From a phage, in assembly GCA_004257845.1 (NCBI GenBank), contig GCA_004257845.1_4800.1: 64,000 bases of DNA; one strand, given 5' to 3'. The notes beneath the pieces were generated by a model, which saw nothing but the letters and a program-made list of their open reading frames with translations, was not told the DNA's origin and made no database searches. This document shows, piece by piece, positions 1 through 58,500 of the stretch; positions within the stretch are counted from its first letter, which is position 1, and each line of letters opens with the position of its first letter. A program made the translations under genes and the position numbers.

Positions 1-798
1 CGCGGCAGTCCGATAATCCCATCAAACGCTATTGCGATGGCCTACCGTCGTGAGATGAAAGGTCTTTGCTATGCGATGATTGATGACTATCAGGCAGGAA
101 TTTCAGAGTGGCTTGAAAAGAAGCAGGTGCAGAAGTTCTTTGCGCAAGACTCTGCTGATTCAACATTCCAAACTCTTATGAAACGTCTGCAGCTGAAATG
201 GGCAAAGGCGTTTGCTCGTGTTGGGTCGAAGATTGCCGCTGATTTTATCAAGTCGGTTGAAAAGGGCGCTACTTCTGCTACATTTGCAAGTCTTAAGTCC
301 GCAGGCATAGAAGCGCCAAAGGCCACATATAACAAATTCGTTGAGAACACTCTTAGAACAAGCGAGACGTTCAACACGACTCTAGTGACTAAGGTTGGCG
401 AGGATATTCACAACAGAGTGTACGAAGCAGTCATGCTTTCGCTGACTTCGCCCGACCCAGCCCAGCAAGGCACGTCAGGCATTCAGGCGGCGCTGCGAAA
501 CGTAAAACACTTCTCTGCAAAGAGAGTCGACTTAATCGCTAAAGACCAGACAAGCAAATTGTATTGCGTTCTAAGCGATGAAAGGATGCGACAGAATGGA
601 GTTGAAGAATTTGAATGGTCGCACTCAGGAGCAGGGAAGGAGCCGCGAATCTCTCATGAACATGTCGACGGAATGAGATTCAAACTTGATGACAAGCGTC
701 TATGGGAAGTGGGCGGAGAGTTGAAGTTCAAAAAGGGTGACATCGGCCCTCCTGGATGGGCGATACGCTGCAAGTGCAGAAAAATACCAATCATTTGA
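1..798 (+). CDS. head morphogenesis protein, Mu F / SPP1 gp7-like C-terminal domain (5' end outside window)
   Basis: Frame is open from position 1 (no stop before first ATG at 37), so the gene probably starts upstream; C-terminal motif ISHEHVDGMRF...PPGWAIRCKCR resembles the conserved H..DG...PP.H.NCRC signature of Mu F-like head morphogenesis domains. Confidence 0.6.
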   Translation, partial: RGSPIIPSNAIAMAYRREMKGLCYAMIDDYQAGISEWLEKKQVQKFFAQDSADSTFQTLMKRLQLKWAKAFARVGSKIAADFIKSVEKGATSATFASLKSAGIEAPKATYNKFVENTLRTSETFNTTLVTKVGEDIHNRVYEAVMLSLTSPDPAQQGTSGIQAALRNVKHFSAKRVDLIAKDQTSKLYCVLSDERMRQNGVEEFEWSHSGAGKEPRISHEHVDGMRFKLDDKRLWEVGGELKFKKGDIGPPGWAIRCKCRKIPII

Positions 799-805
799 GG
801 TCATT

Positions 806-1726
806 ATGACGATACCAATCAGCACGTTTCCTCTATCTGGACAAACGCCAGTATTACCTGCTGTATATGCGAACGGTTTGGCGATTGTTTCAGAATTTAC
901 ATCCGATAAAAATTTGATTGTTCCATTGAGTCCGCCATTGGCATCTGGATACAATTCAGTCGGACAATTCTTTATGATTGGCAATGATGGCGATTCGACC
1001 AGCAAGCCTAATCTGACATTGTCTGTACCTAAGATGGACATCACAGATGTTCAAACTGGCTTGACTGCATCAACAATCACCATTGCTTTTGGAGAAGCGG
1101 TGATTATAGGAATGGAGTCTGGAGGGTCCAAGAATGCTGTCGCCGTTAAGGTAGTCAAATCCAGCGACAACCAATACACGTTACCAGCTGCGACGGCTTC
1201 CGTTCTCGGCGGCGTCAAAATAGGAAGCGGAATAAGCGTCGCAGGTGACGGTACAATTAGCGTTACTCAATACTCATTGCCGATTGCGTCAGCATCTACT
1301 TTAGGCGGCGTAAAGGTCGGTACAACTCTATCAATTGATGGTTCCGGTGTGCTTAACGCAGCGGAAAGCACCGTCCAGAATGCCATGAACAGTGTTAGCA
1401 ATCCTCCAACCACTTTGGTTAATCTGGCAACCTTAAACCTTCCTGCAGGAAAGTGGCTTGTGACGGCAAGTCAGTTGACTGTCGCGACAGCAGGAATTCA
1501 AGCGAATACCGGAATTACAGCCAAATTGTCAACAAGCGATTCAGATATTACGGATGATGCATTTACGATGTCAGCTGGCATTCGGGCTGCAGGTCGTTTC
1601 GGCGGCAATATTCCAACAAAGATAATTACTCTTGCCGCGCCTGGCAACGTGTATCTAAACTATCAATGCACAGATGCGTTGACATCTACCGTTTACGGAC
1701 AGATCACCGCAATTAAGCTGAACTAA
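806..1726 (+). CDS. virion structural protein with internal tandem repeats (possible head fibre/decoration)
   Basis: ATG at 806 preceded by GAGG; internal repeat YTLPAATASVLGGVKIGSGISVAGDGTISV / YSLPIASASTLGGVKVGTTLSIDGSGVLN; position between head morphogenesis and capsid genes. Confidence 0.4.
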   Translation: MTIPISTFPLSGQTPVLPAVYANGLAIVSEFTSDKNLIVPLSPPLASGYNSVGQFFMIGNDGDSTSKPNLTLSVPKMDITDVQTGLTASTITIAFGEAVIIGMESGGSKNAVAVKVVKSSDNQYTLPAATASVLGGVKIGSGISVAGDGTISVTQYSLPIASASTLGGVKVGTTLSIDGSGVLNAAESTVQNAMNSVSNPPTTLVNLATLNLPAGKWLVTASQLTVATAGIQANTGITAKLSTSDSDITDDAFTMSAGIRAAGRFGGNIPTKIITLAAPGNVYLNYQCTDALTSTVYGQITAIKLN

Positions 1727-1736
1727 AGAGGAAGTT

Positions 1737-1874
1737 ATGCAAAAGATTATTCAGTCACGTTATGTTAAAGTGCGAAATATTAATTGCAACTCTTTGCTTT
1801 CTTGGAAATGGGCTGTTTACGACTCGATGTTAATTGGCGTTTTAGTTGCAGGAGTGCTATTTAATATTCACTGA
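1737..1874 (+). CDS. small hydrophobic protein (45 aa), hypothetical
   Basis: Not in ORF track (below 60 aa); ATG at 1737 preceded by AAAGAGGAAG; C-terminal hydrophobic segment SMLIGVLVAGVLF; stop TGA at 1872-1874. Confidence 0.3.
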   Translation: MQKIIQSRYVKVRNINCNSLLSWKWAVYDSMLIGVLVAGVLFNIH

Positions 1875-1904
1875 ATTCATCGGCAAAGGATTGCCGCGAG
1901 TTTT

Positions 1905-2190
1905 ATACGTATAATGACGTATCATACGTATCAAGTAAGTTATTGTTTTCAAAAGAATCTTACGGATGATACGGATGATACGCGTTGCCGCCGTACTATA
2001 TAGGAATTCAAATAAATTAATTTAAAATTATATATCTAATTTAATTTTATTTTTTTATAAACTCTTATATATGAAAAGTATCCGTATCATCCGTATCATC
2101 CGTAGCACACCAGTGATAGCGCGGCTTATACACCGATACGGATAAAAATACGCCTCATTTTATCCGTATCATCCGTATCACACTAATAAA
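1905..2190. repeat. iteron-like region 1: tandem 9-mers (ACGGATGAT) in direct and inverted orientation flanking an AT-rich core
   Basis: TACGGATGATACGGATGATACGCGT at 1961-1985; inverted copies GTATCCGTATCATCCGTATCATCCGTAG at 2078-2105 and TATCCGTATCATCCGTATCA at 2161-2180; AT-rich stretch about 2000-2070; box CGTATAATGACGTA at 1908-1921. Confidence 0.7.
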
Positions 2191-2237
2191 GGCGCGGCTA
2201 TATCGGTTGTTATACATATTCAAACCATAATTATTGT

Positions 2238-2266
2238 TTGCCTAAGTTTTTTTCATTAGATATAAT
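2238..2266 (+). promoter_or_regulatory. sigma70-like promoter (TTGCCT-17 nt-TATAAT) upstream of scaffold/capsid genes
   Basis: -35 TTGCCT 2238-2243, 17-nt spacer, -10 TATAAT 2261-2266, about 24 nt before start codon at 2290. Confidence 0.5.
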
Positions 2267-2289
2267 ACACAATACTTATTTGAGGGTGG

Positions 2290-3708
2290 ATGCGAATGCA
2301 AACGGCACGCGAAATTGACAAAAATGGATTCTTGACGATTATGGGTTGTCCAATTTCGTCATTTGGCATTTTTGATTATTCTGCTGGTCAAGTTGGTCTT
2401 GATGGTGATCCGAATCGCATCGTAAAAGTCTATCGCCCTGAGTCAGCGGTGAAAGACCCCGAAGCGATAGATTCATTCAAAAATATCCCTTTCATCGACA
2501 ATCACGAAATGCTTTCTGGATTTGAAGGTGATGAGGATAACACAGCACCCGAAGAGTATGGAGTTGATGGCGTTCTGACTGGCAATGTTTATTATGACAA
2601 GCCATGGATGCGCGGCGACCTTAAAGTGTTTAGCCGTCGTCTGAAGAAGGCCATTGATTCTGGAAAGGTTGACTTGTCTTTGGGCTATGACTGTGAATTC
2701 ATCATACAGTCTGGAGAGTTTGACGGGCAGCCGTATGAAGTGGTGCAGACAACTCTTCGCGGCAACCACATTGCTCTCGTGGACGTTGGTCGAGTACCAG
2801 GTGCACGGGTGCTGGATGGTCGTTGCTTTGACCATCTTTGTTTGACGACTGTAACACCATCCAACGAGGATTTAGACATGCCAAAACCGTTAAAAGGTAA
2901 AGCGCGTGATAATGCTGTTGAACAGCTGAAATCACTGATCCCTGCGCTCGAACAATTTCTGAATGAAGAGAGCACTGAAGCTGCTCATCAGGACGAAGTT
3001 GAAGTGAAAGCAGAAGAGAAGGACTCAACCGAAAATCGTGAAGAAGTAATGGTTGATCCAGAAGTCAAGGCAGAAGCAGAAGAAACCCCAGAAGGTGAAG
3101 AGAAGTTTGAAGTTGAAACTGAATCTAACGCTGGCGGCGAACTTCCGCAATTGATCAGCCAAATCGAAGCACTTATTGCAAAACTGAAAGGTGGCGCGGT
3201 AGGTGATGAAGAAGAAGTTGAAGCCGAAGTCAAAGACGAAGAAGTTGAAGTCAAGGCTGAAGATGTATCACCTTGCGACAAAGCTGAAGATGTGGTTAGC
3301 GGCCTGCAAAACAGCAACGTAAAGGGGGCTTCGGTCGAAAAAGATGACAAACCGACAAAAGCGGCGAAAGCGTCGCCAGGTCCAGCAAAAGGGGAACACT
3401 CAATGGCATCTGATTCAGCAGTTGCTGCTTTCTACGCTGATTCTGCTCGTAAGAATAGCCTCTACCAGCGCCTGTCTAAAGTTGTTGGTGCCTTTGATCA
3501 TGCAACTATGGACTCCAAGTCCGTAGCGAAATATGGCGCTAAAAAGTTAGGCTTGAAGTGCGTTGATGGCGCTGAGTTTGACGTGGTGGATAACTATCTG
3601 CGCGGCGTTGAACACGGTCAAAAACAGCGTGTAGTCGCAAAACAAAAGGCCGCTGCGGATTCTGCAGCAACTGACGAAGCATTTGAAGCTTGGTTGAAAG
3701 GGGAATAA
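2290..3708 (+). CDS. prohead scaffold / prohead protease-like protein
   Basis: Immediately upstream of capsid gene; long acidic low-complexity central region (EEVEVKAEEKD..., EEVEAEVKDEEVEVKAED) typical of scaffolding proteins; RBS GAGGGTGG before ATG. Confidence 0.45.
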   Translation: MRMQTAREIDKNGFLTIMGCPISSFGIFDYSAGQVGLDGDPNRIVKVYRPESAVKDPEAIDSFKNIPFIDNHEMLSGFEGDEDNTAPEEYGVDGVLTGNVYYDKPWMRGDLKVFSRRLKKAIDSGKVDLSLGYDCEFIIQSGEFDGQPYEVVQTTLRGNHIALVDVGRVPGARVLDGRCFDHLCLTTVTPSNEDLDMPKPLKGKARDNAVEQLKSLIPALEQFLNEESTEAAHQDEVEVKAEEKDSTENREEVMVDPEVKAEAEETPEGEEKFEVETESNAGGELPQLISQIEALIAKLKGGAVGDEEEVEAEVKDEEVEVKAEDVSPCDKAEDVVSGLQNSNVKGASVEKDDKPTKAAKASPGPAKGEHSMASDSAVAAFYADSARKNSLYQRLSKVVGAFDHATMDSKSVAKYGAKKLGLKCVDGAEFDVVDNYLRGVEHGQKQRVVAKQKAAADSAATDEAFEAWLKGE

Positions 3709-3710
3709 AC

Positions 3711-4328
3711 ATGACTTTCCAAACTAGTGTAGGCCGTCAATATACAACTGGCTTTCCTGGCGACATCGTTCGCGACGGCCCACAGCGTGGGAAGCCAGGT
3801 CGAATCGTTAGCGCCAACGAAGGTGCAAACGTAAACGCCATCAGCCGTGTGTTTGGTTTTAAAGCTGACGTATCTTTAATGGGCACTGGCCAAACCAAAA
3901 CCTTGGGCGCGCAGGACTTTGAAGTTGAACTGGGCGGCACCAATTACTATGGCATCCTTGGCAACAGCAAGCGTTACGCTCTGTATGGCAACTCTACTGG
4001 GCCTTTGGGTGCCAGCATGGTTCTGCCTCAATATAGCGAAGGCGAGTTTTACGATATGTGCACGGGCCTCGTAGTTGAAGTATTCAACCCTGGCACCAGT
4101 CCGCAGACGCTGAACTACGGCGACCTGCTCGCTTATGTACCTAAAGGCATTTCCAGCGGCAACAACCCGAACAACTTGCCTATCGGTGCAATTATCGCCT
4201 ATACTGGCTCACTGCCAACTGGCATGGCTGCCATTCCAGGCGGTATCGTGATTGACCCGACTGCTATTGCCCTTTCCGGCCCAAGCGTCCAGTCTTCCAC
4301 TTATACCATTGTACAATTGACTCGTTAA
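3711..4328 (+). CDS. capsid-associated structural protein (possible decoration protein)
   Basis: ATG at 3711 preceded by AAAGGGGA; Gly/Thr/Ser-rich; sits between scaffold-like and major capsid genes. Confidence 0.4.
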   Translation: MTFQTSVGRQYTTGFPGDIVRDGPQRGKPGRIVSANEGANVNAISRVFGFKADVSLMGTGQTKTLGAQDFEVELGGTNYYGILGNSKRYALYGNSTGPLGASMVLPQYSEGEFYDMCTGLVVEVFNPGTSPQTLNYGDLLAYVPKGISSGNNPNNLPIGAIIAYTGSLPTGMAAIPGGIVIDPTAIALSGPSVQSSTYTIVQLTR

Positions 4329-4342
4329 TAGGCAGGTGAATA

Positions 4343-5482
4343 ATGACTCGCATTAGCCAAACACACTCTCGCCTCCCAGCGAGCAAGGTGCGCCCTTTTG
4401 ATATGCAATCCGTTACCGACGCGGCTGTTTCCCAGCTTGCTCGTATCGGTATTGTGTTTGATTCCGCGATTGTGCGTGATCAGATTGAGCACTTAAACCG
4501 TGCAGGCGCTTTCCGCGTAGGTGATGCCGCGTTTACTGCGCCGCAGACCACTCCGTCAATCCCGACCCCGTTGCAGTTCCTGCAGCAGTGGTTGCCTGGC
4601 TTCGTCAAAATCATGACCGCCGCTCGTAAAATCGACGAGCTGGTTGGTATTGATACCGTTGGTCAGTGGGAAGATGCAGAAATCGTTCAGGGTATCGTTG
4701 AACCAGCTGGCACCGCAGTTGAATATGGTGATTTCACCTCTATTCCTCTGGCAAGCTGGAACGTAAACTTTGAACGTCGTTCTATCGTTCGTGGCGAAAT
4801 GGGCATGGCAGTTGGTATGCTGGAAGAAGGCCGCGCGTCTGCGATGCGTCTGAACTCCGCAGAAACCAAGCGCCAGCAGGCTGCTGTATCTCTGGAAATC
4901 ATGCGTAACGCAATCGGCTTCTATGGCTGGTACAACGGGAACAACCGTACATTCGGCTTCCTGAATGATCCAAATCTGCCAGCGGCGATGACTTCCAACA
5001 CCACTTCCGGCTGGGCTACTGCGACCTTCCAACAGGTGACTGCAGACATCCGTTTGATGGTTCGTCAAATTCGTGTGAACTCTCAGGACCAGATTGATCC
5101 AGAGAAGGTTGACATGACTCTGGCACTGCCGACCAACTCTATCGATTGGCTGTCCAACACCACTGACTTCGGTATTTCTGTACGTGACTGGATCACCCAG
5201 ACTTATCCGAAGATGAAGATCAAGTCTGCACCGGAACTCAACGGCGCACTTGGCAGCGACCCGACTTTCTTGAACGTGGCATACCTGTACGCTGATCACA
5301 TCGATTCCTCAATCGATGGTTCAAGCGATGATGGTTCCGTATTCAGTCAGCTGGTTCAGACCAAGTTCATGACTCTGGGCGTTGAAAAGCGTGCTAAGAG
5401 CTACGTCGAAGACTACGCAAACGCAACAGCAGGCGTTCTGCTCAAGCGTCCTTTCGCAGTCGTCCGTATGACTGGTATTTAA
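4343..5482 (+). CDS. major capsid protein (putative)
   Basis: 379-aa ORF following scaffold-like gene; RBS AGGTGAA before ATG; followed by GC-rich stem-loop; position and size typical of major capsid genes. Confidence 0.5.
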
Positions 5483-5509
5483 TTGCTGTGATTACACAGT
5501 AAAACACAT

Positions 5510-5535
5510 GGGGCGTGGTCGAAAGGCTTCGCCCC
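5510..5535 (+). terminator. GC-rich stem-loop after capsid gene (possible terminator/RNA-stabilising hairpin)
   Basis: GGGGCG(5510-5515)...loop...CGCCCC(5530-5535); no clear T-run downstream. Confidence 0.35.
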
Positions 5536-5597
5536 ATATCAATAGACCTCAAGGGCTGTAGGGGCTTATCTGAGGCTTATATAAATAGGACTACAAA

Positions 5598-6062
5598 ATG
5601 TCAAAATACATCGTTTCAACTATGTCTATGTCAGTAAACTACACCTTCTATACGGAAGTGAAAGAAAACCCGAATGCAAAAGCTGGTTCAGGCGCTCTTC
5701 CAAATATTCGCAAACAGATTCTAATCAAGGGCGGCGCTGGTCTTACTTCAGCAACTTCCGGCTTTGGTGAAATGGCAAAAGGCGCTGACGGTGCACCTTT
5801 GTGGACTCCTGAAGGAATCGTCACCGTTGTAAGCGATGCAGATTTTGAGCATCTGAAAGATCATCACGTATTTAAGCAGCATCTTGAAAAAGGTTTGGTG
5901 AAAGTCGTAAATCACGACATTGTTGGCAATCACAAAGCCGTCGCTAAAGAAGTTCGCGGCATGTCAGACGACCCGTTTGCGCCTATGACGCGCGAAACTG
6001 CTGACAAGCGCATCAAGGTGAAATTGAGCGGCGACCAAGAAGATGATTTATTCCGCGTTTAA
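5598..6062 (+). CDS. hypothetical virion protein
   Basis: ORF in same-strand morphogenesis array after capsid gene. Confidence 0.4.
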   Translation: MSKYIVSTMSMSVNYTFYTEVKENPNAKAGSGALPNIRKQILIKGGAGLTSATSGFGEMAKGADGAPLWTPEGIVTVVSDADFEHLKDHHVFKQHLEKGLVKVVNHDIVGNHKAVAKEVRGMSDDPFAPMTRETADKRIKVKLSGDQEDDLFRV

Positions 6063-44002: not shown

Positions 44003-45673
44003 ATGTCAATTAATAATGACAATCTTCCAGAGGATACAGGTGATGAATTTGGTGCAATCTTTGACGAAATTCAAGATGCAGGTGTTTCGGAAGAAATGCA
44101 GGCAGCAGAGCAGCAAGGCACCAGAGCTAAAATCAGCCTTCAACACAAAGCTGTTGAAAAAGATTCAGAGCGCATGGAATGCTACGGTGAAGAAGACTTG
44201 GTTGAAAGAGCACGCTTGCTCGCCTCACTTCAGGTAATCAAGTTCCCTCACTACAAGCCTACCAAAGATGACTTCGTTCTACAGGCAGACCGGACGAGTG
44301 ACATGAACCGTTATGCGGTTTTCGACGCGTTGTTTGATAAGGGAAGTGGCATTGTTCCATTCCCTCACAAAGATACTTTTCGTGGGCGCTTAGTCGACCA
44401 TCGCGGCGAAACATTCACTGACCGTACCTTGGAAGTCACAGAGATAGTCGCTGCTGTCGACGCAGCAGGGTTGTCCAACCCAAACTCACGTCAGGTCGCT
44501 CAATCCTATAAGGAATGGGCCATGCGTTATCAGCGTGACGACCTGATGGACTTCTTCTACAAGAAGCTGCCTGAATGGGACGGTACTGCGCGCATCGAGA
44601 AATACCTTATCGAGCTATTCCGACCGTTCGATACAGAGTTAAACCGACAAATCGGTGTGTATTTTTGGCTATCGCTCTACAACCGCCTGACCAACCCTGG
44701 CTGTCAAGCGCCAATCTCCATCGCGCTAATCGGCGGCCAGAACGCAGGGAAGAGTTATTTTAGCAAGCTGCTTTGCGAAGCTATTATGAACGACCGCCAC
44801 GCAACACCGATTCCGTTGAACTTAGCCGCGCAAAACTTCAACCCGTTCTTGCGAGCTATTACGGGTCGCTCAATTATCGCGAACGTTGGCGAGATGACAG
44901 GCTTTAAAAAGGCCGACATCGAAAACATGAAAGCATTCCTGACTAAGACGGAAGATGACCTGGACTTCAAATTTGAAGATACGCAGGTTAAACCACGCCA
45001 GTGGATTGCCATCATGGACGGCAACGAATACGCAGGCATGCAGCGTGACGATACGGGCAACCGTCGTGTTTACCCTATCTTTGTTGGCCAACTTGCTGAC
45101 AAGGACGGGCAACCGAACTGGTCTAAAGACTTCCAAGCTGACCTTTCCACTTTGAAAGAAGATGTTTGGCAGCTTATGGCTGAGTGCGCTGCGTGGATGG
45201 AGAAGCACGGCGAAGCAGGCTATAACGCGTTTGTTGGTGAAACATCTCGCATGCTTACTGAGTTCAGTAAAAACGAAATGGAACGTGCACGCGGCGTTAT
45301 CCGTGATGAGATGGTCGACAACGACCTTGTTGAAGTCGTCATCACCGCGCCTTATGACCGACATCACAGCGGACGCTGGCACATCACAAGTGGTGCTATT
45401 GCTATGGGATTCAGAGCGAAGTGCGGCAAGTCGCCTTTCTCTCGTACCCTTGCGCCGCACATGTCGAAGCTTGGCTTTGAGCCTGCGACCTATCGCAACC
45501 AGCGCGGCTACTTTACGCCGCTGATTAAGAATGAAGCAGGGGAATACATTTCTGATCTGATGACCATCTTAGCGTATCTTATCCGCGATGAGTCTGACCC
45601 TGAAGATATTGAATTCTTGAAGAAGGTTATTGAGCGTAAACGTTCTTTGGGAAGAGATAAGGATGAATTCTGA
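44003..45673 (+). CDS. P-loop NTPase, primase-associated/D5-like helicase family (putative)
   Basis: Walker A LIGGQNAGKSYFSKLL; Walker B-like IAIMDGNE; RBS AGGAGG. Confidence 0.5.
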   Translation: MSINNDNLPEDTGDEFGAIFDEIQDAGVSEEMQAAEQQGTRAKISLQHKAVEKDSERMECYGEEDLVERARLLASLQVIKFPHYKPTKDDFVLQADRTSDMNRYAVFDALFDKGSGIVPFPHKDTFRGRLVDHRGETFTDRTLEVTEIVAAVDAAGLSNPNSRQVAQSYKEWAMRYQRDDLMDFFYKKLPEWDGTARIEKYLIELFRPFDTELNRQIGVYFWLSLYNRLTNPGCQAPISIALIGGQNAGKSYFSKLLCEAIMNDRHATPIPLNLAAQNFNPFLRAITGRSIIANVGEMTGFKKADIENMKAFLTKTEDDLDFKFEDTQVKPRQWIAIMDGNEYAGMQRDDTGNRRVYPIFVGQLADKDGQPNWSKDFQADLSTLKEDVWQLMAECAAWMEKHGEAGYNAFVGETSRMLTEFSKNEMERARGVIRDEMVDNDLVEVVITAPYDRHHSGRWHITSGAIAMGFRAKCGKSPFSRTLAPHMSKLGFEPATYRNQRGYFTPLIKNEAGEYISDLMTILAYLIRDESDPEDIEFLKKVIERKRSLGRDKDEF

Positions 45674-46320
45674 TGAATAAAGCAATCAACATCGCTAAAT
45701 TCTTTCAACATCTTGGTGAACTGAACAAAGAGAGTGATGTTCACGGCGAAGAAATGAACCGGATGATTTCAACAGTGTTGCGCGGCTTTGGTTATGATAA
45801 GGACTCAATCACTTGCAAGCGCACAAAGCTTGTCGATGAGTCTTATCTTTACTACGTAGAGCTGCGCATTGGTAAAGATGTAATGATCATTGACCCTAAA
45901 CTGGAAGGGGCACACTGTTTTGGCGCTCATCCTCGTGCGAGTGAATTCAAGGGTCGCGGTCGCAACCGAATCCAGAAGCTTGATGACGCAGGCGACTTGA
46001 ACATCGCAATGTTCCTTAAAGAGTTCCTTGCGCTACCGAAGGTTGCATCATCCACGGGCCGTGATGACCCTTGCAAGATTGGATTCCGAACTAAAGATTT
46101 GCGCAATGCGCTACGCAAGAAGGGATTTGTGCCTTCTTATGACAATGTCGCCGCGCTGATGGCTTCAATGGAGGAAGCTGAAGCGATGGACAAGGTACGC
46201 GGCTATTTCCTGAATACAGGCTTCACCATGTATGAATGGCACACGAAGGGATTGACTGTCGCCGACTTCATCTATTCATTAGAGCAGAAGTATGTACGCA
46301 ATATGCAGGCCACAGGATAA
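45673..46320 (+). CDS. hypothetical protein
   Basis: ORF; ATGA overlap with previous gene. Confidence 0.4.
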   Translation: MNKAINIAKFFQHLGELNKESDVHGEEMNRMISTVLRGFGYDKDSITCKRTKLVDESYLYYVELRIGKDVMIIDPKLEGAHCFGAHPRASEFKGRGRNRIQKLDDAGDLNIAMFLKEFLALPKVASSTGRDDPCKIGFRTKDLRNALRKKGFVPSYDNVAALMASMEEAEAMDKVRGYFLNTGFTMYEWHTKGLTVADFIYSLEQKYVRNMQATG

Positions 46321-54027: not shown

Positions 54028-54312
54028 GCCTGTGGAATGTGAGGCTTTATTATCGGATAAAGCGATTGATTTGTGTAAATCTATTAGAGGGTCGTGGGTA
54101 GTAAGGATTGTGACGTGAATTTTGTGTCTTGAATATGTGTGCGAATTTGGAAGAATATTGTACTGTGGTGCTGTGGGATTGGAGAGGGAATCACTAGGAA
54201 TTGGAGCGTGTACCGTGGTGTGTGGTCCTGTAGGCTGCGCCGTATATGGGATTGTCGCTTGAAACTAAAAAGGAGATATAGTTAGCTGGCTAACCTTACG
54301 CATAGAATTTAA

Positions 54313-54604
54313 GCGTATAATGACGTAAGATTTGGACCTATCCGTAGTTCACTCCACACACTTCTATGGTGCGCCGCGACTGGGTTCAGTGGTACATCTT
54401 ACGGATGATACGGATGATACGCGTCGCCGCTATACTTTATACAACTTTGAAAAAACAATTAACTCCATTTTGAATTAATTTAAATTAATTTTTTTCTACA
54501 TCCTCATACTTATACTAAACTTATATTTATACGTATTATCCGTAAGATATAAGTAAAAACAAAGACTTGCGGCAATACGGATGATACGTCATGATACGCT
54601 TCGA
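54313..54604. repeat. iteron-like region 2 (diverged paralog of region 1)
   Basis: GCGTATAATGACGTA at 54313-54327; TACGGATGATACGGATGATACGCGT at 54400-54424; AT-rich stretch about 54430-54530; inverted TATTATCCGTAAGAT at 54533-54547; ACGGATGATACGTCATGATACGC at 54578-54600. Confidence 0.7.
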
Positions 54605-54710
54605 CCAGCCAGCAGCGGCTAAGTCATTGATTTGCATAACAAGCGGCGAAAGGGATGGATTTCTTTTATACGTATCAAACAGTACACCACGCACCACGGT
54701 CCGCAATCCT

Positions 54711-56283
54711 ATTTGCACTATGATTTGTGTACGTTTATAGCCATAATGAACATCAATCTGCACTTGAATATAATGTCCATCCATTGTATAATTCACACTA
54801 TTAATTTGCACTATGGGATTTTGCACTATGAGTCAAGATTATGTAGCGATGCCTGAAGACTTTGAAGACCCGCGATTCGCAGAGCACAATCAGGCTTTAT
54901 TCGATGAGTTCATTGACCTTGTTATTCAGGGCCATGACATGCGCGCAGCTTTTGCACTAGTATTTGGAATGGAAGTTGCAACGGATAACTACACTGGCCA
55001 GCGAATCCTTTGCGCACAACGCAATCCGTACTACAAAATGCGCTTCAAAAAGCGTATGGAAGAGATGCCACTCAAGGATTTGTGGAGCGTAAAAGGTGCA
55101 ATTCACAATTTGGTCAAGCTTGTGCGTGATCCAGAAGTCGCGGCGTCAGCCAAGCTTAATGCTATTCGTGAACTGAATATCATCTACGGCATCACGATGA
55201 TTGATGAAAACGGCAATAGTAAAATGGGCCGTTCCATGGACGATTTCTACAAGGATTTTGGAGAGGCAGCCAAAGAAGGTGAGCAATTCTCCCGCCACTA
55301 GCCAATTTGCACTATAAAACGGCCCTAGAACACATTTTCTCCACTTCTAGGGCCATCGGTAATACGACGGGGAAGGTTACAACCGTAAACGCGTTAGAAA
55401 GTGTATTATTATAAGTCATCTTTTAGTCACTTTACGTAACAATTTACGACCTTCAACCGTCCAATCGAACGACTCCACCAGCAGATTTGCACTATAACCT
55501 AAGACGATGCGCCCTTTCTCGTTATCGACCCGCCAACAAGTCTCGAATAGCATTCGATTTGCACTATTAACTATTGCCGCAACTCGCGTAGGATAAGCGC
55601 AATTTGCACTATGGTCGTAAAGGGATAAGGTGCGACCACTTCCGATGGACAACGTAGCGATGAGAATGAGTGTATTCATAAGCCACCAATTTGCACTATG
55701 AAAAGCGACCCCGAAGGGCCGCCATTCGATTAGATAATCTGGAAGGTGTAGGACTTGTTGCCGAACTCGAAGTTTAAGCGTCCAGCTTCCTTAAGCTTCA
55801 TGCGGAAGCGAATGTGCTTGCTATCCGGTAAGCCCAGCGCGGCGAACGCTACGCGGACCGATTTGAACTCGCCTACACCCTCGACCATGACACCGTTACG
55901 GGTAAGACGCTTTTGCGCCACTTCCTTATTATCCCAACTTTTTGCAATACCTTCGCTATTCGAACGGCGATGGGATGGAGTTCCATTTTGCACTACGCAA
56001 TTTGCACTATCGTTTAAACCGCTCTTAACGAAGGCTTCATACTCTTCGTCGGTCATCGCGTCGAGTTCTTCCTGGGTCGGCTCGGACTTTTTAACGACCG
56101 CACGCGCCTTATGCGTTTTTACATCGTTGGGCACTTCCTCGCGCGACTTCGCGTCTGGGATGGGCGACTCGTTGGACGGCTCATCGAGCGCGTTTAAGGA
56201 CTCGATTAACGCTATTACGCGAGTCTCGGCGGTCCGGCGGTCCGCAAATTTTTTGATCGGCTTCGAACCGGAATTTGCATTAT
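54711..56283 (+). repeat. dispersed same-orientation array of 12-bp motif AATTTGCACTAT (at least 11 copies including variants)
   Basis: Copies at about 54711, 54803, 54819, 55304, 55485, 55557, 55601, 55688, 55985, 55999, 56272, all on the + strand; several lie antisense within minus-strand ORFs. Confidence 0.75.
54813..55301 (+). CDS. hypothetical protein
   Basis: ORF; start could be ATG 54813 or 54828 (no clear SD for either); followed by hairpin 55321-55354 (10-bp stem GGCCCTAGAA / TTCTAGGGCC). Confidence 0.4.
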   Translation: MGFCTMSQDYVAMPEDFEDPRFAEHNQALFDEFIDLVIQGHDMRAAFALVFGMEVATDNYTGQRILCAQRNPYYKMRFKKRMEEMPLKDLWSVKGAIHNLVKLVRDPEVAASAKLNAIRELNIIYGITMIDENGNSKMGRSMDDFYKDFGEAAKEGEQFSRH

Positions 56284-56356
56284 AAAATGCAACGAGGTCG
56301 GCGGTCTTAGTTGCGATAACGTCGCCGCTAGTCGAGAAACGATTTAAGCTAACCAT
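55730..56356 (-). CDS. hypothetical protein (CpG-rich island)
   Basis: 208-aa ORF with distinct codon usage; contains antisense motif copies encoding SANCVVQNG. Confidence 0.4.
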   Translation of the reverse strand: MVSLNRFSTSGDVIATKTADLVAFYNANSGSKPIKKFADRRTAETRVIALIESLNALDEPSNESPIPDAKSREEVPNDVKTHKARAVVKKSEPTQEELDAMTDEEYEAFVKSGLNDSANCVVQNGTPSHRRSNSEGIAKSWDNKEVAQKRLTRNGVMVEGVGEFKSVRVAFAALGLPDSKHIRFRMKLKEAGRLNFEFGNKSYTFQII

Positions 56357-56436
56357 AATGAACTCCTATTTGTTAGGGCGCTAGGCGCGAAAGAATTTTA
56401 TTAAAGCGCCGCGCACGACGCTCTAAAAATCCTCTC

Positions 56437-56721
56437 TTACGCTTCGACGAGGGAGAAGGTCTCAAATTCTTCTTCGCCCATAACGAGTAAGATGTTACCG
56501 ATTTCGACCGCTTCGAAGAAGTATCCGTTAACGTTTACTTCGAAGGCTTCGCGGTCCGATTCCGGTAACGCCGCGTAAAGTTTAAAAGCCTCGGCGACCG
56601 TAACCCCACCCGCCTCGATAGTTTGGTCTACGTTCGCGGCGTAGACTTCGGATAAAATTTGTTTTACGCCGTAGTTCTCGACGATAGCGTTACGGATAGA
56701 AGAAACGTTAAGAATAGCCAT
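56437..56721 (-). CDS. hypothetical small protein, paralog A
   Basis: 94 aa; similar to product of 57355-57645 (SIRNAIVE/AIRSARVE, VYxxNVDxTIE, NGxxxxxxEIG). Confidence 0.45.
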   Translation of the reverse strand: MAILNVSSIRNAIVENYGVKQILSEVYAANVDQTIEAGGVTVAEAFKLYAALPESDREAFEVNVNGYFFEAVEIGNILLVMGEEEFETFSLVEA

Positions 56722-56945
56722 TTTAAACTCCTAGTTGGGAGAGGCGTTAACGACCTATTCGTTAACTCATCCCGTCCCGATATGAGTACATTATAATATA
56801 GTGTAGAAAAAAGTAAAGCACTTTTTCGATAAAGATGAGATAAATTATTTTATCTTTTTTCTTTACTTCTTCGTACACTCGCGTATACTTGTTTATATCG
56901 AGACGGGCGATGACCCTTTCTTTTACTACCATCGGGAGTTTTATT

Positions 56946-57248
56946 ATGGCTACTTTAATTTCTTCTCTTCTTACTTACGACGAAGACCGCTTAACCGTCG
57001 CTTCTCTTCTTAAAGCCGTTAACGCAGAATTAGACGGGACCGCTATTAAGGTCCGCGCGTTCGCCTTCGTCGGCCTTTCCTTCGACGATATGAAGTACGT
57101 CGAACGTAGCGCCATCCGCTTCGCGAAGACCGACGACGAAGCCGTTACCCTTATCGAAACCGTAACGCCGCGCGGCGAAGCGCTAATTATCGTCGAGTAT
57201 CTCGATATAGAAGGCTATAAAGCTTATAAACATTTTATCGCAAAATAA
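56946..57248 (+). CDS. hypothetical small protein
   Basis: ATG 56946 preceded by GGGAG; CpG-rich codon usage. Confidence 0.4.
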   Translation: MATLISSLLTYDEDRLTVASLLKAVNAELDGTAIKVRAFAFVGLSFDDMKYVERSAIRFAKTDDEAVTLIETVTPRGEALIIVEYLDIEGYKAYKHFIAK

Positions 57249-57354
57249 CGAAAAGTGCTTTACTTCTTCGTACACTAAGACTATAATGTTTTATATCGAG
57301 AGGGGATGAGGTAGCGAATAGGTCGCTACCCGCCCGACCAACTAGGAGATTATT

Positions 57355-57645
57355 ATGATTACTTTAGCCGCTATCCGTTCCGCTCGCGTCGAGACTTCCG
57401 AAAACTCTAACGTATTTGGCGAAACCTTAGAGAGCGTTTATCTCTCTAACGTAGACGCAACTATCGAATCTATTTATGAGCCGATCAACTTCCTCGACCT
57501 TTACAAGTATCGCGATGAGGACATCGTATCTTGCCGCGTAACCATCAACGGCTTCGTCTATACGATTACCGAAATCGGCGGCGAATATCTCGCGGTCCCG
57601 CAACTCGGCGGCGAAGTAACTTTCTTTAAAATCGTAAGCCTGTAA
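57355..57645 (+). CDS. hypothetical small protein, paralog B
   Basis: 96 aa; similar to product of 56437-56721 but on the opposite strand; RBS AGGAGA. Confidence 0.45.
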   Translation: MITLAAIRSARVETSENSNVFGETLESVYLSNVDATIESIYEPINFLDLYKYRDEDIVSCRVTINGFVYTITEIGGEYLAVPQLGGEVTFFKIVSL

Positions 57646-57656
57646 GGAGAAGGAAG

Positions 57657-57866
57657 ATGACTAATATGAATAATTCTCTTAACGCGCGCGCCCATCGTAC
57701 CGCCGTAATCGATATGTTCCGCGAGCTTAAGGAATTATGCGATAATATGAACGCGATGTTATCCATCGGCGGCTGGGGATACGAAGAAGAGGTTAAATAC
57801 GCGGTTATGCGTCGCCGTCGCGATAACGTCCTTGGGCAAATTAAACGCGCCGGATTATTCCTTTAA
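57657..57866 (+). CDS. hypothetical small basic protein
   Basis: ORF preceded by GGAGAAGGAAG. Confidence 0.4.
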   Translation: MTNMNNSLNARAHRTAVIDMFRELKELCDNMNAMLSIGGWGYEEEVKYAVMRRRRDNVLGQIKRAGLFL

Positions 57867-57892
57867 TTATAATTACCAACAGTTACTAATAG

Positions 57893-57914
57893 GCCGCGCT
57901 TAGTCGCGGCTTTT
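57893..57914 (+). terminator. rho-independent terminator
   Basis: GCCGCG (57893-57898), loop CTTAGT, CGCGGC (57905-57910), then TTTTCTT. Confidence 0.6.
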
Positions 57915-58036
57915 CTTCGCCCCTATCTCGATGCGCTTCTCCGCGAAAACTCCTTTATCCTTCCCTTCGTCGTCGCATAATCTTCGTCGAGATGCTCCTT
58001 AGTTCGTATAACGGGTATTACGTTAAATGGAGAACA

Positions 58037-58110
58037 TCGCGTAAGTCCTTGTTTTATATAGACACCTATATCGGACCGTTAGGGCGGGTCGCGTAAGTCG
58101 TTGTTTTATA
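58037..58110 (+). repeat. 22-bp direct repeat pair TCGCGTAAGTC(C/G)TTGTTTTATA
   Basis: Copies at 58037-58058 and 58089-58110, one mismatch, in a non-coding CpG-rich stretch. Confidence 0.6.
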
Positions 58111-58386
58111 AAGGCGCAAAACTTTCCCTTCGTTCCGAACTAAAACGAGGAATATGCCGACCCTTCGTCCGAAAATAGTACGCATGCGAAATTACATGCA
58201 TCTCGAATAATTCCCACCGATATTATCCTACAAGCAATCATTCTCTTTCGAATCATTATGCTTCATATTATTATGCGTCGAATCATTCGCTTTCGAATTG
58301 TAACGCTGGAAACTGTAACGGCGATTGATTATTGCGTTCGTGTGGTTTTTAGGGCATGGGTCTTTTGGTGCGTTTTGGTACTTGAT

Positions 58387-58500
58387 GAAATTTGCAGTAC
58401 ACTAATCAAAATACGACACATTTGGTCCACTAACTTTTCAAAGAAAAAGTCCTGGACAGTACCGTACTATTTTGTACCCACAGGAAATTTGCAGTACACT
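58387..58500 (+). repeat. two exact 17-bp copies GAAATTTGCAGTACACT
   Basis: 58387-58403 and 58484-58500; share AATTTGCA core with the upstream motif array. Confidence 0.6.

Follow-up and report, generated by a model that had tools for sequence, protein, structure and literature searches.

The 64,000-nucleotide stretch of phage DNA analysed here (hereafter the window; NCBI GenBank assembly GCA_004257845.1, contig GCA_004257845.1_4800.1) carries an array of a short, asymmetric DNA word, repeated in one orientation around and downstream of terS, the gene of the small terminase subunit (TerS), just inside one end of the direct terminal repeat (DTR). The window was ~95% identical to the Wifcevirus phages AV128, kaset, Bas98-101, WFH, WFC, ECML-117, FEC19 and Mansfield of E. 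coli and belongs to a Wifcevirus-type E. coli myophage. The records of Mansfield and WFH start at the same base, which corresponds to position 54467 of the window, and these two independent determinations agree on the left physical end. A DTR of 3673 bp, predicted by PhageTerm, is annotated in the Mansfield record, the DTR of WFH works out at 3702 bp, and a terminal repeat of ~3.7 kb was reported for WFC and WFH (Korf 2019). With the ends mapped from these two records, and the right boundary placed by mapping Mansfield position 3673 onto 58365, the DTR of the window covers 54467-58365 (~3.9 kb).

The + strand gene at 54828-55301, encoding 157 amino acids (aa), was assigned as terS by phmmer, the Mansfield annotation and phrog_4783. 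Its product matched PDB 7UXE, the 'Small terminase' of Pseudomonas phage E217 (10 chains), with a phmmer E value of 7e-34, and by this homology it is the small terminase, a homologue of the solved E217 decamer. A strong sigma-70 type promoter (TTGAAT-17-TATAAT; 10/12 matches in the promoter scan) was identified at 54764-54792 on the + strand, ~300 bp from the left end and directed into the genome, and equivalent consensus promoters were read from the sequence upstream of terS in Pantoea phage Kyle and Serratia phage Hera. No + strand terminator was found after terS in the window scan. Two minus-strand genes follow. The first (55416-55679) encodes an 87-aa protein with a signal-peptide-like start, has homologues in Kyle (gp2), Pantoea phage PA1 and Hera (gp17), and is annotated in Mansfield and WFH. 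The second (55730-56356) encodes a 208-aa protein of phrog_4730, a family of no known function that occurs in every related clade, including those free of the motif.

When the copies of three phages were aligned, only ~10-11 positions of the word were conserved (RWTTYGCACTAY), and the flanks on either side were without conservation. The 9-mer TTTGCACTA occurred 11 times in the window, always on the + strand and always within 54712-56009, with 0 copies elsewhere in the 64 kb, which bears out the original prediction, made from the sequence alone, of at least 11 same-orientation + strand copies within 1.6 kb. The 12-mer AATTTGCACTAT at ≤2 mismatches gave 18 matches in the window, 12 of them at 54710-56283 and all of these on the + strand, while shuffled windows gave a mean of 9.05 matches and never reached 18; the motif count thus excludes chance. 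Eight exact copies of the 11-mer ATTTGCACTAT were present in the window. In second-order Markov simulations TTGCACTA averaged 1.1 copies with both strands pooled (maximum 4), and the densest 8-mer per 1.5 kb reached 10 copies in the real sequence against ≤4 in the Markov simulations. Overall, the array is real and far above chance. Avoidance of GCACTA outside the array was not found, as both strands matched expectation at Markov orders 2-4; the apparent 2-3-fold deficit under an order-1 model arose because CTA is generally rare. The phase of the copy starts (9/12 congruent modulo 3) was considered as a signal and set aside, being largely the result of the antisense-frame TAG stop and of orthologous copies in one gene.

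The array spans from 0.24 to 1.5 kb inward of the left DTR end, from upstream of terS into the 208-aa gene, and comprises eleven copies and two further ones that are degenerate but conserved across the genus. The first copies lie ~240-350 bp inward of the left physical end and the conserved ones begin at 54790 (+324). All are direct repeats on the + strand, irregularly spaced by 13 to 486 bp, and 8 of the 13 are intragenic, five of these being antisense. The array covers the terS promoter, the 5′ untranslated region (UTR) and the start codon, has one site inside terS and one after its stop, then crosses the 87-aa gene and enters the 208-aa gene. Its leftmost copy, TATTTGCACTAT at 54710-54721, lies upstream of the terS promoter. 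The degenerate copy AATTCACACTAT (54790-54801) overlaps the end of the terS -10 element, AATTTGCACTAT (54803-54814) lies near the terS transcription start, and the final bases of ATTTTGCACTAT (54818-54829) overlap the terS ATG at 54828, so that these three stand in tandem at spacings of 13 and 15 bp. The copies at 54790 and 54803 were invariant in 10 Wifcevirus genomes, as was the degenerate copy CTTTTGCACTAG (54950-54961) within terS, which has an orthologous copy in a third lineage, L171, described below. The copy at 55304-55315 starts 2 bp past the terS stop and abuts the U-tract of a minus-strand terminator hairpin (55321-55354).

Three copies lie in the 87-aa gene: GATTTGCACTAT at 55484-55495, replaced in Bas101 and WFC by the variant ATTCGCACTAT, which is the Kyle-type form; GATTTGCACTAT at 55556-55567, with an orthologous copy GCACTATTAA in Kyle, PA1 and L171; and AATTTGCACTAT at 55601-55612. 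The original prediction had treated 55302-55729 as a gap, which does not hold since these three copies sit in a conserved gene. Another copy (55688-55699) lies between the terminator of the 208-aa gene (~55704-55723) and the ribosome-binding site of the 87-aa gene. Two copies thus abut minus-strand terminators, and the WFH record annotates terminators there. Within the 208-aa gene, ATTTTGCACTAC (55985-55996) is missing from the RCIP0319, Ro157lw, ECML-117 allele and is followed at a spacing of 14 bp by AATTTGCACTAT (55999-56010). Finally, AATTTGCATTAT (56272-56283), which is without the GCACTA core and differs between closely related phages, is a doubtful copy that probably arose by chance. 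Read in antisense, each of the three copies in the 87-aa gene is translated as Ser-Ala-Asn, and the two in the 208-aa gene as SANC and VVQN, the peptides that had been read correctly in the 208-aa product beforehand.

Comparison between lineages showed that the array is retained where most of the surrounding nucleotide sequence is not. In the Pantoea phages Kyle and PA1 (Kylevirus), detectable nucleotide similarity to the region was limited to 86 bp and TerS was 41-43% identical. Kyle nevertheless carries 14 and PA1 13 copies of TTYGCACTAY (GCACTA preceded by T-rich sequence). Every one is on the + strand, and they extend from inside terS to ~1.1 kb downstream, which is the matching place. In the Kyle genome (69.5 kb), 14 of the 19 + strand GCACTA words are packed into 1 kb. 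The third lineage, L171, was taken from a public run; its TerS was 68% identical and its DNA ~68-70% identical. It has 10 copies, all on the + strand, with tandem spacings of 12 and 13 bp; five lie upstream of terS, three of them in tandem right after the -10 element, and only three downstream, whereas Kyle has 0 copies upstream of terS. Copy number is thus roughly steady at 10-14 across lineages while positions and reading frames turn over, as between Kyle gp3 (PVVQK) and its PA1 homologue (PSAKP), in which the word lies four codons apart and in different frames. Within the genus, the central nine copies were essentially invariant in ten Wifcevirus genomes and the outermost ones (54710, 55985/55999 and 56272) variable. 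The full match at 54710 is found in this phage alone, and nine relatives keep GCACTAT, GCATTAT or similar there.

A control was provided by Hera, which is motif-free and has the gene of its 87-aa homologue located elsewhere. Ser-Ala-Asn stands at aligned positions of the 87-aa protein in three motif-bearing phages, and the window peptides HSANC, NSANR and YSANL correspond to AYKDC, NGGGN and DQYSL in Hera. As judged from these alignments, the proteins adapt to the word and not the reverse. The occurrence of Ser-Ala-Asn at three aligned positions of a conserved small protein is what would be expected if the array were a by-product of a repetitive protein sequence, an origin that had been named as able to overturn the original prediction. 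This explanation, together with chance, is refuted and retains practically no probability, as copies are also found between genes, in the sense frame of terS and, read as VVQ, in another antisense frame, the Hera homologue is without Ser-Ala-Asn at all three positions, and the counts exclude chance. Because the word is conserved across genera, turns over in position and frame, and is accompanied by the Hera control, a DNA-level function is strongly supported, as had been proposed from the retention of a one-orientation word through coding sequence. The word is under selection at the DNA level and is lineage-specific.

The related clades compared were Pbunavirus, Myosmarvirus, Carpasinavirus, Bcepfunavirus and an Aeromonas phage. 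The array was found only in Wifcevirus, Kylevirus and L171, though every related clade has TerS and the 208-aa protein, and no analogous array was present downstream of terS in Pbunavirus, Carpasinavirus, Bcepfunavirus, the Aeromonas relative or the IMG/VR relatives. In Myosmarviruses, three direct copies of the 21-bp AAAAAATAAGCATGCTTTGTA stand directly after terS, interleaved with Chi sites (4525-4650 in Hera, locus L008, and 4527-4645 in locus L009), and this triple may be a lineage-specific counterpart of the array. In the enterobacterial clades the last codons of terS specify Lys/Arg-His-stop (AAG/CGC CAC TAA/TAG), which places a CACTA core on the stop codon in the window (55293-55301), in Kyle (828-839), in Hera (about 4440-4450) and so also in Myosmarvirus, though that clade is array-free; this CACTA may be the ancestral seed of the motif. 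An exact-pattern scan of IMG/VR for three spaced TGCACTA words returned 120 loci, which were almost all unrelated tandem coding repeats, and none was accompanied by a TerS relative.

The reading tentatively favoured, at somewhat below an even chance, is that the array provides redundant sites for a phage DNA-binding protein, most plausibly the ring-shaped TerS, and marks the left genome end for packaging. We infer all three parts of this reading, namely protein binding, TerS as the binder and the packaging purpose. The original prediction had proposed binding sites for a phage protein; as a class this stands as the best explanation, while the context favours terminase and genome-end biology over the generic regulator that had been suggested, because the array lies at the left end of the terminal repeat and around terS. 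The homologous TerS is a decamer with outward N-terminal helix-turn-helix (HTH) motifs. Such rings would present their N-terminal DNA-binding motifs with cyclic symmetry, so that DNA touching several subunits would have to carry its repeats as direct copies, all facing one way. Copies in tandem, 12-15 bp apart, would be contacted by adjacent subunits, this spacing being roughly what the DNA path per subunit round a 9-10-mer ring may require, and the dispersed copies would nucleate more rings or loops. Binding on the array would set the packaged side of the boundary cut at 54467 and the direction of packaging, and binding to the copies on the terS promoter and 5′ UTR could feed back on terS expression (autoregulation).

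TerS and packaging are favoured because pac and cosB elements usually occupy such a position, next to the cut and at terS; they lie inside terS in P22 and flank the cut in SPP1 (review PMC9611059). The array stands beside the physical genome end (left DTR end 54467), and its copies are upstream of, inside and downstream of terS. It also tracks the genome type, as it co-occurs with long-DTR, fixed-end genomes (Wifcevirus, Kylevirus and L171), whereas the array-free Pbunavirus is reported to be headful and permuted. Several points weigh against TerS as the reader. The E217 TerS bound DNA poorly in vitro, to no appreciable extent, and no DNA specificity was found for it (review PMC9611059). In the putative HTH/recognition region, TerS of Wifcevirus and Kylevirus were no more alike than either was to that of the motif-free Pbunavirus, a comparison of TerS-motif covariation that covers three motif-bearing lineages with nearly the same word. 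At least 12 sites over 1.3 kb are unlike any characterised pac or cos site. In addition, the ATACGGATGATACG repeats and other cross-genus blocks in the 360-bp leader are alternative candidates for terminase signals, and the conserved ATACGGATGATACG, TTGCGGCAAT, CAGCGGCTAA and CAGTACAC lie nearer the boundary than the array does. Finally, the lack of upstream copies in Kyle shows that the promoter/operator placement is not universal.

The main rival is that the word is a polar, Chi-like signal read by an enzyme tracking from the left end, in which case copy number and orientation would matter and exact positions would not; such an enzyme might be a nuclease-helicase, a translocase of host defence or, as in lambda cosQ, the terminase motor nearing the end. 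A single orientation relative to the nearest end in the window, Kyle, PA1 and L171, the many copies, their positional turnover and their occurrence in any frame all agree with it. So does the company of Chi: 9 copies of CCACCAGC (Chi on the minus strand) in Kyle and 7 in PA1 are interleaved with the array and would be active for RecBCD entering from the left, Chi sites are distributed 13 to 2 by strand over the Kyle genome, and 4-5 such sites cluster around terS in Myosmarviruses. In the window, the sole exact Chi of the region (GCTGGTGG, 55475-55482, minus strand), oriented for RecBCD from the left end, abuts the copy at 55484, and four Chi-like octamers there share one orientation. However, the word is not Chi, which forms a separate interleaved element, and the co-location may mean merely that both features need an exposed end nearby. 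A mirrored array for the right end is absent, and a polar signal does not predict that tandem copies should sit precisely on the terS promoter and 5′ UTR, as they do in two lineages. Genome-wide over-representation or strand skew of GCACTA was not seen, its frequency outside the array being that of Markov expectation. A full-text search for the motif string returned nothing relevant, only primer sequences, and to our knowledge the word matches no control sequence of an E. coli enzyme. On balance a polar signal is considered unlikely, while still the most serious competitor. A specific form of it, in which a phage-specified polar code stands beside the host Chi and, read inward, either switches a nuclease-helicase or warns the terminase of the end, would explain why copy number and orientation alone are conserved and why the Kylevirus copies are interleaved with correctly oriented Chi, and is regarded as doubtful to a slightly greater degree. 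An operator or roadblock array for an early phage regulator, acting at the terS promoter and in the meeting zone of rightward terS and leftward early genes, is also improbable, though it deserves about as much weight as a polar signal. Copies overlap the terS -10 end, the transcription start region and the start codon in the window, three tandem copies come right after TATAAT in L171, two more copies lie between minus-strand terminators and the next gene, terS is not followed by a + strand terminator, and the DTR encodes a small (69-aa) protein of a 'transcriptional regulator' PHROG. On the other hand, most copies are deep within genes, a repressor needs no strict unidirectionality, the Kyle terS promoter is without a copy, and neither the Kyle nor the PA1 locus encodes a homologue of the 69-aa regulator.

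The remaining explanations are less probable still. Replication iterons resembling the P4 ori/crr octamers, for which the binding protein would be the VapE-like primase-helicase or the 215-aa protein translationally coupled to it, are quite unlikely. The 215-aa protein is restricted to the motif-bearing lineages and coupled to the helicase gene, and the DNA at 54467-54560, ~240 bp away from the array, is AT-rich. The irregular spacing over 1.3 kb is nevertheless not the tandem or regular repeat set beside an AT-rich stretch that an origin would show, and the region is a local maximum of cumulative GC skew and not a minimum, which is a weak test as skew follows gene orientation. The irregular spacing and the skew maximum also make the partition or initiator sites offered by the original prediction a poor fit. 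Moreover, clade-specific iteron-like short repeats lie upstream and not downstream of terS in all clades, the helicase is also conserved in motif-free clades, and modelling of the 215-aa protein gave no usable structure. Phage-specific promoters or -10-like elements directed inward, serving for example transcription-coupled genome entry as in T7, had also been put forward and are very unlikely. All copies point inward like the terS promoter, several are followed by the -10-like TATNNN, and in L036, an unrelated phage from IMG/VR, TGCACTATG forms the -10 part of a repeated promoter-like element whose -35 box is TGGGAAT. Against this, neither a -35 box nor another upstream or flanking element is conserved, the sigma-70 scan called no copy, the core is GCACTA and not TANNNT, and the downstream bases in Kyle are poor -10 hexamers. 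The copies are mostly intragenic and antisense, so that transcripts would run antisense to the early genes instead of starting upstream in the sense direction. Strand-specific nick sites for a phage nickase, which might promote recombination or duplication of the terminal repeat, are least probable among the DNA-level alternatives. Localised single-strand interruptions occur in T5 and phiKMV-type phages, and copies of an asymmetric word all on one strand would suit such a role by inference only; no nickase was identified, and known nicked phages scatter their sites and do not place 12 in 1.3 kb.

Phylogenetic profiling for a reader protein showed that TerS and the 208-aa protein are present in all clades and that six unannotated open reading frames of the window are common to Kyle only; these six had no Pfam or PHROG match. 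One of the six encodes the 215-aa protein, which is start/stop-coupled to the VapE-like primase-helicase gene and was identified at 45673-46320 in the window, 6657-7307 in L171 and 63676-64350 in Kyle. It occurs in the motif-bearing lineages only (Wifcevirus, Kylevirus and L171), with only two homologues among 5.8 billion proteins. It had no family match, and its AlphaFold model was uninformative, with a predicted local distance difference test (pLDDT) score of 52.

Comparison with several known consensus sequences did not identify the word. The DnaA box (TTWTNCACA) conflicts with the conserved T at position 9, the TrpR half-site needs inverted pairs, the RE2 element of the marbox is absent, and the GCAC-N6-GTT of the EcoKI site is not formed; the T4 MotA box, the sigma-54 -24/-12 elements and Tus Ter were rejected on inspection. 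An Rfam covariance-model scan gave one sub-threshold match, unrelated to the array. In phage L036 (IMGVR_UViG_3300042868_012782), 20 same-strand copies of TGGGAAT-N~17-TGCACTATG were found at 405-5654 at intervals of 55-90 or about 500 bp, and these look like a phage-specific promoter family with a -10 part resembling the motif.

Other elements were identified near the DTR boundaries. ATACGGATGATACG flanks the left boundary 54467 in three direct copies and one inverted copy (54399-54421 and 54575-54588; inverted at 54529-54551). An analogous AATATCCGAA triple was observed in Kyle around its own boundary, and both sets of repeats are candidates for a cleavage-site or origin element. The boundary-associated element CAGTACAC is found on the + strand at 54680-54687, 213 bp past the left boundary, and also at 58395-58402 and 58492-58499, giving 3 copies in the window compared with 2 in the whole Kyle genome (204 and 3634). 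Its offsets are alike in both genera, about 205-213 bp past the left DTR boundary and ~30 bp past the right one. A motif-like element, GAAATTTGCAGTACACT, was identified on the + strand at 58387-58403, 22-38 bp past the right DTR boundary, and is repeated at 58484-58500. Immediately beyond the right boundary, the window, Kyle and PA1 share a conserved block of ~35 bp running from TTGGTACTTG to GTACACTAATCA; this block and CAGTACAC may act as a signal for terminase or for the boundary, or as a promoter. The + strand is G/T-rich with GGTGG-type words just left of the end region (54120-54260 of the window; 3250-3340 in Hera), and the DNA after terS in Hera is strongly C/A-rich, the strand composition flipping around the putative end. 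As for Chi sites, the left end of the window has one exact site only, plus CCACTAGC at 55295; clusters, all set for left-entering RecBCD, were observed at 255-1972 in Kyle (L004), 2648-4220 in PA1 (L005), 3737-4833 in Hera and 4487-4992 in L009. Further inside the DTR, two near-identical rightward promoters (56861-56889 and 57258-57287; TTTACT-16/17-TATACT and TATAAT, with GTACAC right before the -10) are enclosed in a 65-nucleotide inverted repeat pair (arms 56719-56783 and 57293-57357), which together probably form an early promoter module.

Among known systems, terminase sites generally consist of 2-7 repeats confined to 100-200 bp, mostly in non-coding DNA or only inside terS, whereas the array has 10-14 unidirectional copies over 1-1.3 kb that run through three genes on both strands. 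It resembles the repeat-built terminase sites (lambda cosB R1-R3, SPP1 pacL/pacR and the P1 pac hexamers) in having short repeats near the cut and terS. Known sites are cis-acting, lie beside the cut and beside or inside terS, and give packaging its polarity (review PMC9611059). This phage differs from those systems in its exact ends and 3.9-kb terminal repeat, and the binding role of its array is putative. TerS of the window is homologous to that of E217, and in both phages terS is not adjacent to the large terminase gene; Pbunaviruses are, however, without the array and reported as headful, whereas this phage has fixed ends. The packaging domain of adenovirus has redundant A repeats (TTTG-N8-CG) near the left end that overlap other functions and direct polar packaging. 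Redundant short repeats a few hundred bp inside one end are a likeness by analogy only, as adenovirus infects eukaryotes, its proteins are unrelated and its motif is bipartite. Chi is similarly orientation-dependent, multi-copy, flexible in position and found within coding sequence, and Kylevirus has genuine Chi sites arrayed alongside the word, over the same 2 kb and with matching polarity; the array differs in its sequence and in being confined to 1.3 kb instead of being genome-wide. The type I iterons of P4 ori/crr (TGTTCACC) are bound by the alpha primase-helicase and occur in both orientations in compact clusters. They share with the array the form of dispersed short repeats, and this phage encodes a helicase of the same broad kind (VapE/D5-like), but skew and clade comparison argue against an origin here. 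A description of the array was not found in the papers on Wifcevirus that were consulted or by full-text search of the motif string. Since binding by TerS is putative, judged from sequence, and neither the identity of Chi nor the anatomy of a promoter was found, the array is a repeat-built cis element at a phage genome end that stands outside any defined family.

The array bears on how viral DNA is recognised by small terminases, the E217-type TerS having a solved structure but no known DNA target. The array is a candidate for such a target, being short, asymmetric and multi-copy, with support at the DNA level from three lineages. If the polar end signal were instead true, the array would represent a control sequence of a new class in phages, one that depends on orientation. 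Wifcevirus and Kylevirus phages attract interest because they complete their life cycle very fast and are related to the therapeutic Pbunaviruses. Either way, the array is a landmark for the true ends and cis elements of both genera, which would aid their engineering or rebooting.

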